DNA from: Actinomycetota bacterium
Lineage (GTDB): Bacteria > Actinomycetota > CADDZG01 > JAHWKV01 > JAOPZY01
Assembly (NCBI GenBank): GCA_025963875.1
Contig: JAOPZY010000237.1
Coordinates: forward strand, 1 to 33,233
Reading direction: 5' to 3'
Length of the DNA stretch: 33,233 bases
Both the position numbers and the translations under genes were made by a program. The notes beneath the pieces were generated by a model that worked only from the letters and a program-made list of their open reading frames with translations, was not told the origin of the DNA and ran no database searches. The number at the start of each line of letters is the position of its first letter. The stretch's first letter is position 1. This document shows positions 20,402-28,098 of the stretch, piece after piece.

Positions 20402-20995
20402 GTGGAGTTCTCCGATGTTGTACGGCGGCGGCGCATGGTGCGGCGCTATCTGCCGGAGGGTGTGCCTGATCATGTTCTTCGGCGGGTGGTTGAGGCGGGG
20501 CGGCGGGGGCCCTCTGCTGGCTTTTCGCAGGGGCAGTCGTTTGTCGTCGTCACCGATCCGGGGGTACGGCGCGAGATCGCGGCGCTGGCGGGAGAGGATG
20601 CCTACGTCGCCAAGGGCTTCCAGCCGTGGGTATCGGAGGCGCCGGCCCACGTGGTGGTCTGCACGAGCGAGCAGGACTACCGTGACCGCTACCGGGCCCC
20701 CGACAAGCTCGGGCCCCGCACCGAGCTGGACTGGCCGGTGCCGTTCTGGTACGTCGATGCCGGCTGCTCGCTGATGCTGCTGCTGCTCGCAGCGGTGGAC
20801 GAGGGCCTGGCGGCAGGGTTCCTCGCCCTCAAGAGCTACGAGGGCCTGCGGGAGCTGCTCGGCATCCCGGCCCACGTGCAACCCATCGGGATCGTGACTA
20901 TCGGCAGGCCGGCCCCGGACCGGCGCTCCGGCTCCCTGGACCGGGGCCGCAGGCCCGCCGCCGAGGTCGTCCACCACGACCACTGGGGCGCCTGA
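20402..20995 (+). CDS. nitroreductase family protein
   Basis: Motifs VVRRRRMVRRY, GPSAGFSQGQSFVVV and DAGCSLMLLLLAAVDEGLAAGF. Confidence 0.92.
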   Translation: MEFSDVVRRRRMVRRYLPEGVPDHVLRRVVEAGRRGPSAGFSQGQSFVVVTDPGVRREIAALAGEDAYVAKGFQPWVSEAPAHVVVCTSEQDYRDRYRAPDKLGPRTELDWPVPFWYVDAGCSLMLLLLAAVDEGLAAGFLALKSYEGLRELLGIPAHVQPIGIVTIGRPAPDRRSGSLDRGRRPAAEVVHHDHWGA

Positions 20996-21057
20996 CTGCC
21001 GGGCGCCTCAACCTCGACGCCGAAGCCGAACGGCGGAGTCTGAACTTAGTCCCCCAG

Positions 21058-21090
21058 CGCGCGCATGTGCGCGAAAGCCGACTGACCTCC
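21058..21090. repeat. dispersed palindromic intergenic repeat, copy A
   Basis: CGCGCGCATGTGCGCGAAAGCCGACTGACCTCC matches 28123-28155 at 30 of 33 positions. Confidence 0.85.
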
Positions 21091-21115
21091 TGGTCAGGGG
21101 AGGCCAGCCGGGCGA

Positions 21116-22000
21116 TCAGCCGAGGCCCCGCGGCACCAACTCCAGGACCGACGCCTCCGGGGGGCAGAGGAAGCGGTACGGGGCGAACTTGCCGGTGCCA
21201 AGACCCGGCGTCACGAAGAGCAGCGTCCGCCCCACCCAGGAGGCCCCCAGTGCGAGGTGGCGGGGCACCGTCGAGTTGGTGACGACCGCCCCGACGAACG
21301 GGAAGCGGATCTGGCCCCCGTGGGTGTGGCCCGCCACGACCAGGTCGAAGCCGGCTTGGGCGGCGTCCTGGTAGGGCGAGGGGTCGTGGACGACACACAT
21401 GGCAAACGCCGCATCGGGGCTCCGGCGCAGCAGGGTGCGGTCGTCCCGCTGCAGGAAGGGGTCGTCCATGCCCGTGATCTGGGTGGGGGTCCCTTTGAGG
21501 TCCACGTAGACGGTGCGGTTTGTGAGGCCCTCGTAGCCCTGGGACTCCAGGATGCGCAGGAAGTCGTCGGTGCGATTGAGCTTGGTCGGCAGCCTCCGCC
21601 GGTGGGTGAAGTAGTCGAGGTAGTTCTTGAACCTGGGGGCGTAGTAGTCGGACGAGCCGAGGACGTAGTAGCGGCCCAGGCGACCCTGCAGGCCGCCCAG
21701 GAGCCGGGCGCAACGCTCGACCGCGGCCGGCTCGCCAAGCAGGTCCCCGGTGGCGAGCACGAGGTCGTAGGTGTCCTCCGACAACCCCGAGAGGAACGCC
21801 GCGAGGCGGGTGCTGGACAGGCGCAGGTGGAGATCCGAGACCTGGAGGATCCGCAGCGGCTTGGCGTCGGGCGGCAGGACCGCCAGCCGGTGGGTGCGGA
21901 TCCAGTAGCGGTGGGCCTCGACGACGCCCCAGCCCACGCAGGCGGCCGCTGCGGCAGCCGAGGCGCCAGCCCCGGCCAGCAGCACCTTGGAGGGCTTCAT
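21116..22000 (-). CDS. calcineurin-like metallophosphoesterase (YkuE/Rv3683-like)
   Basis: Motifs QVSDLH, ATGDL, AGHTHGGQI and PEASVLEL. N-terminal membrane anchor. Conserved position beside tRNA-Pro. Confidence 0.92.
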   Translation of the reverse strand: MKPSKVLLAGAGASAAAAAACVGWGVVEAHRYWIRTHRLAVLPPDAKPLRILQVSDLHLRLSSTRLAAFLSGLSEDTYDLVLATGDLLGEPAAVERCARLLGGLQGRLGRYYVLGSSDYYAPRFKNYLDYFTHRRRLPTKLNRTDDFLRILESQGYEGLTNRTVYVDLKGTPTQITGMDDPFLQRDDRTLLRRSPDAAFAMCVVHDPSPYQDAAQAGFDLVVAGHTHGGQIRFPFVGAVVTNSTVPRHLALGASWVGRTLLFVTPGLGTGKFAPYRFLCPPEASVLELVPRGLG

Positions 22001-22971
22001 GACGCGAACGGGAGACCCACATCGATGACGGTGGGGGCGGCCGCGGCCAGCGCCTCGGCGATCGCCAGGCCCAGGCCGGGCTCGTCGTCGGCCCGGACGG
22101 CGCGCACGTCGGCGTCATGCAACGTCGGCGACGCCGCCTCCCCTTCGAAGGCGAGGACCACCACGGGAAGACCCGCCTCCGCCAGCGGGCCGAGGTCCCC
22201 CACGTCGCCGGCGCTCACGAGGGCGACGGCGGGGCCTCGCCGCTGCCGGGCGAGGCCGAGCGCCGCCACCGGCGCAAAACCCGCGTCGGCGTCCCGTGCC
22301 GGGGCGTGGAAGGTGCCCGGCACCGGGACCGGGAACAGCGGAAGCCCCCAACGGACGGGGCCTGCATCCCAGACCGTGGGGATCTCGGCGGGGATCGCAC
22401 GGCGCAGGGCCTCGATCGACGCGGGAGGCGGCCCCGCCGCGAGCAGGCGCTCCCGTGCCGCCTCCCGCACCGCCGACACCCGGACGGCGGCGCCCTCGCG
22501 GGCCGGCCCGGGTGGGCGGGCGCTCAGAGCCGCCGCGAGCTGCGCCAGCACGGCCCTAGCGTCGCCGAGCATCTCGGAGCGTGCCGGGTATCTCCGGCTG
22601 AACACCTCGGGGTCGATGTCGATGTGGAACAGCTGGAGGGGCAAGGGGATCTGCCACCGCTTGGTGGAGCGGGCGGAGAACGAGGTCCCGACGGCAAGGG
22701 CAGCATCGGCCTGGCCCAGGAGGCGGGCGACCTCGGGTGCCCCGAAGAGCGAACCGACGGCCAGCGGGTGCGTCTCGCTCAGCGCGCCCTTGCCGGACGT
22801 GCTGGTCACCACCGGCGCCCCCAGCAGCTCGGCCACCTCGCCAAGCTCGTCCCAGGCCCGGGCGGCGACGGCACCACCGCCGGCCCAGATCACCGGGCGG
22901 GCGGCAAGCGAGAGGAGCAGCGCGGCTTCCTCGATGAGTCCGGTGGAAGGCGCCGTCGGGCCGGCCGTCAC
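21997..22971 (-). CDS. truncated/degenerate ThDP-enzyme (acetolactate-synthase-like) protein: central domain plus eroded C-terminal domain
   Basis: Motifs RPVIWAGGG, GAPVVTSTSGKGALSETHPLAVG, ADAALAVG and HIDIDP..GDARAVL. No N-terminal PYR domain and no intact GDG..NN. Overlaps both neighbours by 4 nt. Confidence 0.8.
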   Translation of the reverse strand: MTAGPTAPSTGLIEEAALLLSLAARPVIWAGGGAVAARAWDELGEVAELLGAPVVTSTSGKGALSETHPLAVGSLFGAPEVARLLGQADAALAVGTSFSARSTKRWQIPLPLQLFHIDIDPEVFSRRYPARSEMLGDARAVLAQLAAALSARPPGPAREGAAVRVSAVREAARERLLAAGPPPASIEALRRAIPAEIPTVWDAGPVRWGLPLFPVPVPGTFHAPARDADAGFAPVAALGLARQRRGPAVALVSAGDVGDLGPLAEAGLPVVVLAFEGEAASPTLHDADVRAVRADDEPGLGLAIAEALAAAAPTVIDVGLPFAS

Positions 22972-24602
22972 AGCCGGGGAGTGAGCTCGAGGATCACGCC
23001 CGCCGACATCCAGCGGGCGATGATGTCCTCGACCGTGCCCGAGACGGACTGGCGCTTGGCCACGAGCAGCGCCCCGATCTCGTGGAACTCCGCCTGGTTC
23101 TCGGGACCGATCACGCGCACCGACGCATCGAAATCCACCAGCCGGGCGTCCCTGCCCTTCCACCGCAGCGACACCTTCGCTTCCCGGACGTTGCGCGCGT
23201 CGGGAACGATCTGCTGGGGTTCGGCGGAGAGGACGAAGATCTTCCCGTTGCGGTAGACGAACCAGCAGGGCAGCGAGAGGTTGGAGGTGTCGGGGGTGAC
23301 CCAGATGATGTCGGATTTCTTGAGTCCCTCCTCGATGGCCGGCCCGATGGGCAGCGTCGCAAGCCGGTCCTCGTCGGCACCCCACCCGGCGCTGCGCTCC
23401 GGGACGTAGCCGAGCTGGTCCCACTCCGCATCCACCGCCCGCAGCACGTACCAGGCGGTGTAGTTGAAGAACTCGTCTACCGCCTCGAGCGGGTCGTCGA
23501 AGTCCTCCATGCGGATCAGCTCCTCGTGGGGGATCTGGCCGGAGTCGATCAGCTTGTGGCGCTGGGCGAGGGAGATCTCGATCGAGGCCTCGAGGCCGAG
23601 CTTGTCGTCGGGCCTTGGTCCGCCCGAGCCGCGGTCCTTGTGCGGGTCCCGCCGGAAGGCCAGGACCCACGACGGCGGCTGGGGGCTGATATAGCCCTCG
23701 GACCAGAACGTTCCGTCGCTCAGGATGGCCGATAGCAGGATCGTGGGCTTGGGGAACAGCAGCTTGAAGCCGGTCCAGTGGGCCTTGAACGTGCGGGTGA
23801 GGTTGCGCTCCTGAGCGATCGACAGCGTCCCGAGCTCGCCCGCCCCCTTGGGCACCTCGTAGTCGGACAGGCGCCGCGCGATGCGGGAGAGCACCTCGTT
23901 GGGAGCGTCGGCCTTCGGTTGGGGCACCGTGCGCTCCGCCCGGGACTTGAGGACAACCGGGGGGATGTCGACGAAGTCCCGGGTCGTGATGAGACGCTTC
24001 TCCTCCGCGGCCGCAGCTCGGGTCTCCAGCTCCGCCACGTGGTCCTCGTCGGCACCCCAGCCGATGGTCGGCTCGGGGAGATAGCCGAGCTGGTCCCACT
24101 CCGCCTCCACCGCCCGCAGGACGTACCAGGCGGTGTAGTTGAAGAACTCGTCCACGGCCTCGAGCGGGTCGTCGAAGTCCTCCATCCGGATCAGCTCCTC
24201 GTGGGGGATCTGACCCGAGTCGATCAGCTTGTGGCGCTGGGCGAGGGAGGTTTCGATCGAGGCCTCGAGGCCCAGCTTGTCGTCGGGCCGGGGGCCGCCG
24301 GAGCCGCGGGCCTTGGGCGGGTCCCGCCGGAAGGCGAGGACCCACGACGGCGGTTGGAGACTGATGTAGCCCTCGGACCAGAACTGGCCGTTGAGCAACG
24401 TTGCGGAGAGCAGGATGGTGGGGTTGGGGAACAGCAGCTTGAAGCCGGTCCAGTGGGCCTTGAACGTCCGGGTGATGTTGCGCTCAAGCCCGATCGACAG
24501 CGTGCCGATCTCCCCCGGTCCCTTCGGCACCTCGTAGTCGGCGAGATTGCGCGCGACATGGAGGCGCACATCGCTGATACCGACGACCTTCCTCAGAGCC
24601 AC
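22968..24602 (-). CDS. hypothetical protein: two tandem ~172-aa unknown domains plus a C-terminal pyridoxamine-5'-phosphate-oxidase-like split-barrel domain
   Basis: GTG follows GGAAAGGGAA. Internal duplication with a 675-bp period. The C-terminal IIWVT..PCWFVYRNGKIFVLS..VSLRWKG..FDASVRVI resembles split-barrel flavin/F420-binding domains. Confidence 0.85.
   Translation of the reverse strand: MALRKVVGISDVRLHVARNLADYEVPKGPGEIGTLSIGLERNITRTFKAHWTGFKLLFPNPTILLSATLLNGQFWSEGYISLQPPSWVLAFRRDPPKARGSGGPRPDDKLGLEASIETSLAQRHKLIDSGQIPHEELIRMEDFDDPLEAVDEFFNYTAWYVLRAVEAEWDQLGYLPEPTIGWGADEDHVAELETRAAAAEEKRLITTRDFVDIPPVVLKSRAERTVPQPKADAPNEVLSRIARRLSDYEVPKGAGELGTLSIAQERNLTRTFKAHWTGFKLLFPKPTILLSAILSDGTFWSEGYISPQPPSWVLAFRRDPHKDRGSGGPRPDDKLGLEASIEISLAQRHKLIDSGQIPHEELIRMEDFDDPLEAVDEFFNYTAWYVLRAVDAEWDQLGYVPERSAGWGADEDRLATLPIGPAIEEGLKKSDIIWVTPDTSNLSLPCWFVYRNGKIFVLSAEPQQIVPDARNVREAKVSLRWKGRDARLVDFDASVRVIGPENQAEFHEIGALLVAKRQSVSGTVEDIIARWMSAGVILELTPRL
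23366..24555. repeat. intragenic direct repeat, ~515 bp x2 (23366-23880 and 24041-24555)
   Basis: Gap-free offset of 675 bp checked at both ends. Many differences are synonymous third-position changes. Confidence 0.95.
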
Positions 24603-24651
24603 ACGTTCCCTTTCCGTCGGTGCCCGTGAAGCCGCCAGATTATAGGGCCGC

Positions 24652-25758
24652 TCAGTCCCGGGCGAGGTGCCCGGAGCCGGCGAAGATCATCTCGGCCACG
24701 TCGTTGAGCGAGCTGAGGTTGGCCACGTCCCGGTTCATGTACGGGATCCGGACCCAACGCCGGCTCGGGACCTCGGACTCGAGTCGCTTCAGGCAGCGCT
24801 CCTCGCGCCGGCGAACCTGCTCGAACTCCTCCGCGATCTGGGCCAGTCGGTCGCCCAGCGGCGTGCCGACGGCGTCGCCGGCAGCGCCGGAGAAACGTGG
24901 GTGGATGCGGTTGACGACGAGGCCGCCGAAGTGAAGGTGGTGCGACGTCATCGAGGACACGAGGAACAGCGCCTCCTCCACGGCCTGGTCGGTCGGGCTC
25001 ACGACGACGACGAACCGGGTCAGGTCCTGGCGCAGCAGTTCGTAGACGGCCTGCGCCCGTTCCTTGAAGCCGTCGTACATGCCTTCGAAGTTGGCGAAGA
25101 AGTCGGCGGTGTCCTTCAGCGCCTCGGCCCCGATGACCTTCTGCACGACCCGGAGGAAGGCCACCGCCGCCAGGTTCATCGCCCGGAAGACGCCCCGCCC
25201 CCCGCCGACCGCCGGGACGAGGAACCACTTCAGCAGCCGGCCCTCCAGGAAGGAGGTCATCCGCTTCGGGGCGTCGAGGAAGTCGAGGGCGTTGCGGGTG
25301 GGCGGGGTGTCGATGACGATCAGGTCGTAGTTGCCCATCCAGTACAGCTCGTACAGCTTCTCCATGGCCATGTACTCGTGCGTGCCGGACAGGGCGCCGG
25401 AGATGGCCTGGTAGAACCGGTTGTCGATGATCGACTGCGCCCGGTCCTCGGACTTGGCGTAGCGGTGGACCAGGTCGTCGAAGGTCGTCTTCGTGTCGAG
25501 CATCATGGCGTCGAGCGGGGCGGGCGGGAGCCCGGCGGCCTCGAAGGCCTCGTCCGGCACCGGGCTCGGCTTGTTGGAGAGCGCCGTGAGGCCGAGGGCG
25601 TCGGCCAGCCGCTTGGCGGGGTCGATGGTGACGACGCACGTCTGGCGGCCGCGCAGCGCTCCCTCCATGGCGATGGCGGCCGACACCGTGGTCTTGCCGA
25701 CGCCGCCGGGGCCGGCACAGATGACGATCTGCCCGTCGAGGGCCGACTCGAGGCTCAC
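24652..25758 (-). CDS. ArsA/Get3-like ATPase (Rv3680/BagB-like partner)
   Basis: Motifs CAGPGGVGKTT (signature Lys absent), VTIDPAKRLADALG, EYMAMEKL and IDTPPTRNALDFLDAP. GTGA overlap with the upstream ATPase gene. Confidence 0.92.
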   Translation of the reverse strand: MSLESALDGQIVICAGPGGVGKTTVSAAIAMEGALRGRQTCVVTIDPAKRLADALGLTALSNKPSPVPDEAFEAAGLPPAPLDAMMLDTKTTFDDLVHRYAKSEDRAQSIIDNRFYQAISGALSGTHEYMAMEKLYELYWMGNYDLIVIDTPPTRNALDFLDAPKRMTSFLEGRLLKWFLVPAVGGGRGVFRAMNLAAVAFLRVVQKVIGAEALKDTADFFANFEGMYDGFKERAQAVYELLRQDLTRFVVVVSPTDQAVEEALFLVSSMTSHHLHFGGLVVNRIHPRFSGAAGDAVGTPLGDRLAQIAEEFEQVRRREERCLKRLESEVPSRRWVRIPYMNRDVANLSSLNDVAEMIFAGSGHLARD

Positions 25759-26720
25759 GCCTGATCTTCGATGACGTCGGCGAGCAGGTCCAGCTCCTTG
25801 CCGGCGAAGCCGTCGCCGAAGAGGAAGGGCAGGTCGATCACCGACGCCGTCCCGTCGAGGCCATCGATCAGCGTCTGCCGGTGTTCCTGCTGGATGGCGC
25901 GCCGGTCCCGGTAGAACTCGCCGCAGGCGAACAGCGCCTGGGCGCGCTGGTCGGACAGGGGCGGGGCGTCCTTCGTCCGGGGCCGCAACCCTCGGGGTGT
26001 CTTCAGGCGGTCGAGGGCGGCGTTGACGGCCGGGTCCTCGGCAAAAGGCGGGTAGAGCATGTTGAGGTGGACGCGGTCGACGTTCATGTGGACCCGCTCC
26101 TCCAGCAGCCTGGTGGTCTCGAGCGTCTCCTTCACCGGCGTCTCCTCGGCGAGGCTGACAAGGTGGACGGCCACCTGCTCGGGATCGTGCAGCCAGTCCG
26201 ACACCCGCCTTGCGTGACCGGCCAGCGTGCCCACGGGAACCGCCTCGAGGAAGCCCTCCGGCGACCGCAGCATCGACACCGCATGGCCGGCGGCCGGCGT
26301 ATCGAGGATGGCGAGGTCGAACTCGCCCTTGCGGGCCACCTGGTACCAGATCTTGCCGAGCATGAGGATGTCCCGCAGGCCGGGCGCGGCGTGGGTCACG
26401 TAGTAGACGAGCTGGGACGTCACGAGGGGTTTGACCACCCGCTTCGCATGGAACTGGACCTCGAAGTACTCCGAGAGCGCCTCTTCCGGCGAGACGTGCA
26501 TGGCCCAGAGGCCCGGGCGCAGCTCGCGCGGCTCGCTGGTCAGGGGCGGGGCGGCGAGGAGGCTGGAGAGGGCGTTCTTGCCCTCGATCTCCGCCACGAG
26601 GACCCGGAGGTCGTGGCGGGCGGCCATGACTCCGAGGGCCGCGGCGATGGTGGTTTTCCCGACCCCGCCCTTGCCGGAGATAATGAGGAGCCTGCGGTCG
26701 AGTATGGCGTCCAGAGACAC
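25755..26720 (-). CDS. ArsA/Get3-like ATPase (Rv3679/BagA-like partner)
   Basis: Motifs ISGKGGVGKTT, AAPGLRDILMLGK, LDTPAAGH and LAEETPVKET. Confidence 0.92.
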   Translation of the reverse strand: MSLDAILDRRLLIISGKGGVGKTTIAAALGVMAARHDLRVLVAEIEGKNALSSLLAAPPLTSEPRELRPGLWAMHVSPEEALSEYFEVQFHAKRVVKPLVTSQLVYYVTHAAPGLRDILMLGKIWYQVARKGEFDLAILDTPAAGHAVSMLRSPEGFLEAVPVGTLAGHARRVSDWLHDPEQVAVHLVSLAEETPVKETLETTRLLEERVHMNVDRVHLNMLYPPFAEDPAVNAALDRLKTPRGLRPRTKDAPPLSDQRAQALFACGEFYRDRRAIQQEHRQTLIDGLDGTASVIDLPFLFGDGFAGKELDLLADVIEDQA

Positions 26721-26727
26721 GGTCTTG

Positions 26728-26733
26728 ATGATA
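26728..26733 (-). promoter_or_regulatory. -10 (TATCAT) of a leaderless promoter for the ArsA-pair operon
   Basis: GGG-TATCAT lies 7 nt before the GTG start, with no SD. Confidence 0.6.
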
Positions 26734-26772
26734 CCCCCACGTTTTTACAGAGCTTTCCTGCTGCACTGCCTC

Positions 26773-28098
26773 ATGCCGGGGATGCTCAGCGCGCTCGCCG
26801 TCCTGTCGCTGGCAGCTCCCGCCTGGTCATCTACCCGTTTGCAGGGCGCGCGTTCCATTTCGAGTGTGGGCGGCGCCGTGGACTACTTCGAGCTCTCCGG
26901 GGTGATCGACCCGGTCTCGGCAAAGGCACTGGTCCGGGTGATCGCCTCGTCGGAGGCCTCGCAGGCCGCGGTCCTCATCGTCCGCCTCGACACCCCGGGG
27001 GGCTTACGGGTCTCCGTCACCGACCTGGTCGACCGCATCCGCCACGCGACGGTCCCCATCGTCGTGTGGATCGCTCCCCAGGGGGCCCGCGCCGCCGGCG
27101 CCGGCGTCTTCCTTGCCGACGCGGCGCCGGTCCTCGCCATGGGGCCGGGCACGACGCTCGGTCCGGTCGTCCCGGTGAACCTCGACGGGAAGACCGACCC
27201 GGCGGCCGCCATGGGCTACCTCAGGAGCATCGTCTCGGGCGGCCCCCGTTCGGTGACCACCGTTCCGGTGGGGGCGGTGAGCGACGAGGCCGCCGCCTCG
27301 GCCGGCATCATCAGCTTCCGTGCCGGGACCCTCGGCACGCTCCTGGCGAACCTCGACGGCAGGACCGTGCCCGTGGACGGCCAGCCGGTCAAGCTGTCCG
27401 TGGCCGGCGCCCCACTCCGGTTCCAGAAGCTCGGGTTCTTCGACCGCCTGCTGCACGCCGCCACCCGGCCCGCGGTCGCCTACATGCTCCTGCTGATCGG
27501 CCTGTTCGGGATCGTGTTCGAGCTGTACTTCCCGGGCATCGGGGCCGCCGGGTTGATGGGCGGCGGGGCGCTCGTCCTCTCGCTCTACGGCTTCAGCGTG
27601 ATGCCGACCTCATGGGCGGCGCTGGCGCTGGTCGTCGTGGGGATCGTGGCGTTCGTCCCCGACCTGCACAGCGGCGGCCTCGGCATCCCCACGGCGTTTG
27701 GCACGGTCGCGCTGGTGGCCGGCAGCATCCTGCTCTTCCCGCACGCCTCGCCGGCCCTTCGCCTGCCGTGGTGGGCGACCGTCGCGGGGGTCGCCGGGAC
27801 GCTGCTGTTCTTCATCTCGATCATGACCGCCGCCCTGCGGGCCAGGGCCGCTCGCCCGCCGGCCGGTATCGAGGGCCTGGTCGGCAGCGTGGGGCTGGCC
27901 AGGACGGACCTGGTGCCCGACGGCGAGGTCACCGCTGCCGGGTCGCTCTGGCGGGCCCGGACGCTGGGGGCGGCCATCCCCGAAGGCACCAGGGTACGCG
28001 TCCGCTCGGTGTCGGGGCTGCTGCTGCTCGTGGAGGGCGTTGAAGCTGGGGACGGAGCCGGCGAAACGTCCCATGACGAAGGCCCCGTCGAGGCGTAG
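26773..28098 (+). CDS. nfeD: long-form NfeD protein (ClpP-like N-domain, TM domain, C-terminal OB fold)
   Basis: LDTPGG and PIVVWIAPQGARAAGAG in the N-domain; LLLIGLFGIVFELYFPG TM block; GLVGSVG..DLVPDGEV..GSLWRA OB domain. Start is uncertain (26728/26773/26782). Confidence 0.9.
   Translation: MPGMLSALAVLSLAAPAWSSTRLQGARSISSVGGAVDYFELSGVIDPVSAKALVRVIASSEASQAAVLIVRLDTPGGLRVSVTDLVDRIRHATVPIVVWIAPQGARAAGAGVFLADAAPVLAMGPGTTLGPVVPVNLDGKTDPAAAMGYLRSIVSGGPRSVTTVPVGAVSDEAAASAGIISFRAGTLGTLLANLDGRTVPVDGQPVKLSVAGAPLRFQKLGFFDRLLHAATRPAVAYMLLLIGLFGIVFELYFPGIGAAGLMGGGALVLSLYGFSVMPTSWAALALVVVGIVAFVPDLHSGGLGIPTAFGTVALVAGSILLFPHASPALRLPWWATVAGVAGTLLFFISIMTAALRARAARPPAGIEGLVGSVGLARTDLVPDGEVTAAGSLWRARTLGAAIPEGTRVRVRSVSGLLLLVEGVEAGDGAGETSHDEGPVEA

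Follow-up and report, generated by a model that had tools for sequence, protein, structure and literature searches.

We analysed a 33,233-nt stretch of DNA from an Actinomycetota bacterium (GenBank assembly GCA_025963875.1, contig JAOPZY010000237.1, positions 1 to 33,233; hereafter the window) and found that its gene at 22968–24602 encodes a 544-aa protein in which an orphan N-terminal domain (N-domain) occurs twice in tandem ahead of a C-terminal domain (C-domain). The protein belongs to a narrow, well conserved family that joins the orphan alpha/beta N-domain to a divergent PNPOx-like split barrel. The duplication is real and under selection, which we regard as close to certain.

Tandem duplication of the N-domain

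A repeat search located direct repeats with a start-to-start spacing of 675 nt at 23327–23626 and 24002–24301 (86% identity) and, at the same spacing, at 23629–23662 and 24304–24337 (91%). The match is far beyond chance and reproduces the exact 675-bp offset given by an earlier reading of the window made from the sequence alone. Compared ungapped at a fixed offset of 225 aa, the two copies were identical at 151 of 174 residues and 456 of 522 nt, and the 23 amino acid differences agree with the approximately 22 in 172 residues that had been estimated. The longest identical stretch was 47 aa (residues 119–165 and 344–390). Six nucleotide differences lie within it and are therefore all synonymous, as had been noticed. 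The motifs highlighted in the sequence-only reading (FKAHWTGFKLLFP, FWSEGYIS, and DEFFNYTAWY) were each found in both copies. Homology at offset 675 extended from about nt 5 to about nt 590 of the gene, with background values (0.2–0.4) on both sides. As it ends near nt 590, the duplicated unit is the N-domain, and the 51-aa linker between the copies is without a counterpart. The DNA upstream of the gene was also searched for a source of the linker, and nothing homologous emerged (best local score 19 over 17 nt).

Both copies are under purifying selection, in line with the earlier proposal. The Nei–Gojobori estimates between them were dN 0.076, dS 0.375, and dN/dS 0.20, and the differences were distributed 13/14/39 over codon positions 1, 2, and 3. 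Both copies retained all 48 N-domain columns conserved in at least 90% of 100 single-copy homologues, and the 23 differences were confined to variable columns.

The survey of single- and double-copy homologues that had been suggested was carried out with an N-domain hidden Markov model (HMM). Two N-domains were detected in 16 of 128 family proteins (542–586 aa, plus two partial) and one in 110, while in P0123 a single short N-domain was split into two HMM matches. The double forms are recorded in JGI, NCBI, and ENA, with identities to the window protein between 55% and 98%, and locus L015 is also double. Individual Logan contigs of other studies join the two copies across the linker (X4 record 16, 23763–24249; X2 record 7, 23808–24150), and a further X2 contig (record 4, 22915–23475) crosses from copy 2 into the C-domain. 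The Logan sources compared include the soil metagenomes X4 and X6.

The sequence-only reading had dismissed an assembly artefact, and the double forms from several sources and the contigs across the junctions bear it out. A mis-assembly that stitched two strain variants of one domain in tandem has a negligible chance of being correct and is already contradicted: short-read metagenome assemblies can mis-join similar sequences, the assembly of one related metagenome-assembled genome (MAG) breaks inside the repeat (L038, L020), and the single-copy proteins P0011, P0014, and P0019 lie inside the double-form clade, but the frame is open throughout the unique linker, the linkers of the 16 double forms co-vary across sources, the junctions are crossed in independent studies, the architecture is the same in orthologues down to 55% identity, and the copies differ mainly at third codon positions. 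Of the two contigs of this MAG, one stops within copy 1 or copy 2 and the other opens in a copy tail followed by the C-domain; the assembly was interrupted inside the repeat of what is probably a double-copy gene.

Evolution of the two copies

The copy tree comprised 32 copies and 25 single domains, the latter chosen as a spread from the 110 single-copy proteins. All double forms were positioned within one starred clade (100/99), together with the three single-copy proteins named above. Copy 1 and copy 2 formed separate starred groups only among the close relatives of the window protein (P0001–P0006). Outside these, the two copies of a lineage were often sisters, each other's nearest relatives. 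Copy-to-copy identity was 71–94% in every double form, and orthologues fall to 55%. The approximately unbiased (AU) test on eight double forms, from which the partial P0004 was excluded, rejected the grouping of all first copies in one clade (p 0.002) and likewise that of all second copies (p 0.0015).

The data are read most simply as a single duplication in this branch with repeated gene conversion afterwards, and concerted evolution of the copies is probable. Two points tell against it. The groups compared in the AU test were defined with the first tree already in view, and a separate, independent duplication is possible in the P0010–P0018 branch. Linkers in that branch are longer, proline/alanine-rich, and barely alignable, whereas the linker is clearly homologous across P0001–P0009. 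P0011 resembles copy 1 at its beginning and copy 2 at its end, which would fit a loss of one unit by recombination or a collapse in assembly.

Tandem duplications of domains within a gene, with the copies homogenised by gene conversion, are a general, well-known mode of protein evolution. The present case shares with them two adjacent in-frame copies, a higher identity between copies (71–94%) than between orthologues (down to 55%), and trees that group copies by lineage, and differs from them in that the duplicated unit is uncharacterised and single-copy proteins occur within the same clade. The duplication is thus real, yet an ordinary kind of event.

The orphan N-domain

The N-domain model (m58b1191d81f5, aa 1–200) had a predicted local distance difference test (pLDDT) score of 89 and a predicted template modelling (pTM) score of 0.85. 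The predicted order of elements is a helix, a six-strand meander, a conserved RGSGGPRPDDK loop, a two-helix insertion, a strand, a long helix, and a strand. Its conserved polar set consists of H50, E77, R92, R99, R105-P106-D107-D108, E135, R139, E141, and D142.

No family had been recognised for the repeat from the sequence, and the searches returned none either. The whole protein had no match in Pfam. For the N-domain, Foldseek found no significant neighbour in PDB (best E 0.08) or BFVD (best E 0.046), and the ESM Atlas gave no usable match. PHROGs yielded matches only at E ≥ 0.055 and PADLOC none. A PDB sequence profile search with alignment A1, which excludes five single-copy proteins of unusual length (P0033, P0038, P0058, P0064, and P0090), gave 0 matches at E ≤ 10. 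At the two-helix insertion, SHOCT_2 (PF20612) matched three of 101 homologues at E ≤ 5 (best 0.001), and P0058 scored 25 bits over residues 130–161 against a cut-off of 24; the window protein itself had no SHOCT_2 match.

The two-layer alpha/beta sandwiches of frataxin/CyaY (4hs5, 4jpd) and the TriTu immunity protein (7zhm_D) resemble the N-domain core, with structural scores below the noise line of the tool. The N-domain is twice as long as such sandwiches, carries the RGSGGPRPDDK loop and the two-helix insertion, and has no sequence similarity to these proteins, so that we treat the likeness as resemblance, not membership.

The C-terminal split barrel

In the model of aa 226–544 (pLDDT 89, pTM 0.68), residues 193–319 (protein aa 418–544) matched PNPOx-like split barrels, and the C-domain is predicted to form a split beta-barrel of about 120–140 residues. 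The best Foldseek matches were F420 proteins (7kl8, E 1.2e-3; the group of the deazaflavin-dependent nitroreductase, Ddn). Of the earlier suggestion that the C-terminus is a PNPOx/F420 split barrel, the fold is thus upheld by structural matches, while no curated sequence model was reached. On its predicted structure, the C-domain is an unmodelled, distant branch of the PNPOx-like split-barrel superfamily.

Sequence profiles gave fainter signals. PNPOx_N matched one of the 24 distant relatives scanned, at E 0.0029 and below the cut-off. Alignment A3 consisted of the C-domain and 69 distant relatives, mostly 125–200 aa in length. Among these 70 members, TIGR03667 matched 22 and TIGR03618 matched 17 (best E ~5e-6), all short of the curated NCBIfam cut-offs of these PPOX-class F420 families. 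The PDB sequence profile search with A3 gave 11 matches, the best of them (E 0.13) to eIF2-gamma and not credible; the PNPOx-related 3f7e appeared at E 1.3. In the ESM Atlas, aa 226–544 came closest to small clusters from actinobacteria, one carrying the automatic name PNPOx; the top score of 0.78 stays below the 0.9 line and gives no more than a lead.

The PPOX-class F420 oxidoreductases of mycobacteria (TIGR03667 "Rv3369" and TIGR03618 "Rv1155_F420"; Rv1155, 1w9a/4qvb; Rv2991, 1rfe) are among the closest known systems. By comparison, the C-domain scores about a tenth of the curated cut-offs, has motifs of its own (W..W, EQ..P, R-x-K, RLN/KRQS, and RW), and is fused to an N-terminal domain that is absent from those enzymes. 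Heme-type split barrels (HutZ 3tgv, ChuZ 3swj, HupZ 7kpz, and MSMEG_6519 5bnc) and PAI 2 (2ol5) share 6–10% identity with the C-domain and no sequence-level signal, and were tied in the ranking with flavin and F420 proteins. In A3, many stand-alone C-domain relatives end in a conserved proline/threonine-rich tail (approximately ..P.pTPATT....PF) followed by a basic stretch; the window protein is without this tail.

Distribution and gene neighbourhood of the family

A word-seeded search retrieved 126 homologues at E ≤ 1e-3, all unnamed or "hypothetical" and, where an organism was stated, always from "Actinomycetota bacterium". The family was found only in metagenome-derived genomes, and its usual form is a protein of ~320 aa with a single N-domain followed by the C-domain. 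Across a 401-genome sample of the phylum, a full-length single match was present in five of five other genomes of the same order, and only the genome of the window (G000) had two N-domain matches. A sister family of the same class (f4) encoded a shorter N-domain variant without the RGSGGPRPDDK loop and the two-helix insertion in 23 of 26 genomes (e.g., P0123). Elsewhere, only C-domain matches were obtained (profile positions ~190–320). Some genomes in these tallies are flagged as unpublished, namely G148 and G336 (same order), G391, G048, G120, G018, G226, G239, G001, and G174 (f4), and also G343, G088, and G268. Further examples of the short variant are the proteins P0125, P0203, P0219, and P0248 and, as loci, L009–L014. 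An exhaustive HMMER search of 1.84 billion representatives yielded 195 proteins with E ≤ 1e-3 and only three full-length clusters at 50% identity.

P0122 joins the N-domain (E 2.6e-61) to a DUF6789 membrane domain at the C-terminus in place of the split barrel, and in P0132 and P0138 a different N-terminal domain precedes the same C-domain. These fusions indicate that the N- and C-domains are separable modules, and the DUF6789 fusion that the N-domain is a mobile one.

The gene belongs to a conserved operon of two ArsA/Get3-like ATPases, this gene, a gene with the middle domain of thiamine pyrophosphate (TPP) enzymes, and a metallophosphoesterase. Directly upstream, an ArsA-like ATPase on the same strand was found in 11 of 24 named loci (L015–L038) and a divergent NfeD gene in 12; the one remaining locus begins within the gene. 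The metallophosphoesterase lies downstream in 18 of the 24, the remaining contigs ending too early to tell, and the TPP-middle-domain gene separates it from our gene in 17. An ArsA-like gene was also upstream in all six short-variant loci, two of them from unpublished genomes. A similar ArsA/Get3-like pair occurs in mycobacteria (Rv3679/Rv3680) in a comparable chromosomal region, which we take to be a candidate correspondence; the function of this pair in actinobacteria is poorly understood.

Cofactor supply and proposed function

The genome of the window encodes F420 synthesis: three genes on contig C3 scored over their cut-offs, cofD with 325 bits, cofE with 237 bits, and cofH, which lies in a 788-aa open frame, with 505 bits. 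In the phylum sample, 30 families are listed; cofE was present in all ten that carry the C-domain module, and none of the 13 families without a cofE match (87 genomes) had the module.

The overall explanation that we favour, somewhat beyond even chances, is that the split barrel would be the dimerising, cofactor-holding part of the protein, and the orphan N-domain the family-specific part that would bind a substrate or partner. F420 would be the first candidate cofactor and a flavin or tetrapyrrole the alternative, these being the cofactors of the nearest structural and sequence neighbours. The doubled form would present two N-domain binding modules per chain, and the operon would tie the protein to the ArsA/Get3-like pair. 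Cofactor-dependent chemistry in itself, whether with F420, flavin, or heme, is a tentative assignment that falls somewhat short of an even chance.

Several observations weigh against the favoured explanation. PNPOx_N (PF01243) did not reach its threshold, with one match among 101 family members at E 0.13, and TIGR03667 scored 12.8 bits with the whole protein and 16.8 with the C-domain alone against a cut-off of 125.3. The structural neighbours of the C-domain carry FMN, FAD, F420, or heme, and the titles of PAI 2 (2ol5), CREG (1xhn), and GluTR-binding protein (4n7r) name no cofactor; with such mixed neighbours, neither a ligand nor a redox role follows from the fold. Seven listed cofE-positive families are without the module, G358 (92% complete) has the module and no cofE match, and the co-occurrence of module and cofE is confounded by phylogeny, which makes it weak support. 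With no informative neighbour, the role given to the N-domain is pure inference.

In the main alternative, the split barrel would have lost cofactor chemistry and be left only as a scaffold for dimerisation or regulation. On this view the protein would not be an enzyme but an adaptor or regulator that binds through the N-domain surface, and it might act as a client or cofactor of the neighbouring ArsA/Get3-like ATPases; we consider this possible, though unlikely. A role in tetrapyrrole handling such as heme breakdown or bilin reduction, with the tetrapyrrole held by the N-domain sheet and the barrel acting like HutZ, HugZ, or the F420-dependent biliverdin reductase Rv2074, is improbable and draws only on a sub-threshold likeness of fold.

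A more specific version of the favoured explanation would treat the ~190-aa N-domain as a new family, possibly a new fold, that captures a substrate (a tetrapyrrole or other planar metabolite) or a protein client and presents it to an F420-dependent split barrel, within an actinobacterial module with the Get3-like pair; the tandem copies would form an intramolecular pseudo-dimer replacing the homodimer of single-copy forms. So detailed a scheme has a slim chance of being right in full. Complex prediction with copy 1 and copy 2 alignments gave scores of 0.00 and 0.00, no verdict either way on the pseudo-dimer.

The gene and its context in the window

The coordinates of the gene, its parts, and its operon neighbours are summarized in Table 1. 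A purine-rich GGAAAGGGAA sits 3 nt upstream of the GTG start, whose position matches the MALRK start of homologues. G + C in the coding frame is 0.91 at third codon positions (GC3) and 0.46 at second (GC2). The stop of ArsA/Get3-like ATPase 2 lies 49 nt before the gene, and the two ATPase genes (24652–26720) adjoin and overlap. The GTG start of the TPP-middle-domain gene overlaps the TGA stop of our gene (GTGA), which suggests translational coupling. Its 324-aa product had no Pfam match to the N-terminal or C-terminal TPP-binding domains and, judged by its domain content, could be a shortened acetolactate synthase relative that is not catalytic.

Table 1 Positions of the gene, its domains, and neighbouring operon genes in the window.
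Feature	Position	Strand	Basis
Whole gene, 544 aa + TGA stop	22968..24602	minus	Open reading frame (ORF) list; GTG start
Repeat copy 1 of orphan N-domain, aa 17–190	24033..24554	minus	Ungapped self-comparison, predicted model
Linker, aa 191–241	23880..24032	minus	No counterpart in second unit; homologous among double forms P0001–P0009
Repeat copy 2 of N-domain, aa 242–415	23358..23879	minus	151/174 aa identical to copy 1
C-terminal domain, predicted divergent PNPOx-like split beta-barrel, aa 416–544	22971..23357	minus	
ArsA/Get3-like ATPase 2, upstream operon gene	24652..25770	minus	Pfam PF02374, E 1.9e-28; synteny
ArsA/Get3-like ATPase 1, upstream operon gene	25755..26720	minus	Pfam PF02374, E 1.9e-24; synteny
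TPP-enzyme middle-domain gene, downstream, 324 aa	21997..22971	minus	Pfam PF00205, E 1.8e-32; synteny
Metallophosphoesterase, downstream	21116..22000	minus	Pfam PF00149, E 7.2e-10; start overlaps stop of TPP-middle-domain gene

The wider region includes dnaX, recR, and aspartokinase, which marks it as core chromosome and not a mobile element. The gene at 22968–24602 is genuine, looks expressed, and is part of the chromosome of an uncultured soil Actinomycetota bacterium. One RNA run (X15) contained three short Logan contigs, 95–99% alike, a weak hint of transcription against which it must be set that they could be DNA carry-over. A scan of 20900–27000 predicted 0 promoters and 0 terminators and is uninformative in a 70% GC genome.

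Long ORFs overlap the gene in other frames, for example a 782-aa ORF (21997–24345, minus) whose first 450 residues are low-complexity Arg/Pro/Gly. These are typical of 70% GC DNA and not evidence for overlapping genes. Two paralogous AMIN-like proteins (PF24837; 28190–28882 and 32068–32691, both on the plus strand) flank a major facilitator superfamily (MFS) transporter and an MGH1-like glycoside hydrolase.

Significance

The family is an orphan-domain-bearing variant inside a known superfamily, and if the protein is no more than a usual F420 or flavin enzyme plus an accessory domain, its interest is modest. Passages of a superfamily survey describe much of split-barrel sequence space as still uncharacterised (PMC12204192). 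Here, an unmodelled branch of the flavin mononucleotide (FMN)/F420 split-barrel superfamily is joined to a domain without a family or structural neighbour, and the natural single- and double-copy forms in close relatives offer a ready-made experiment on the role of the N-domain and on whether it works in pairs.
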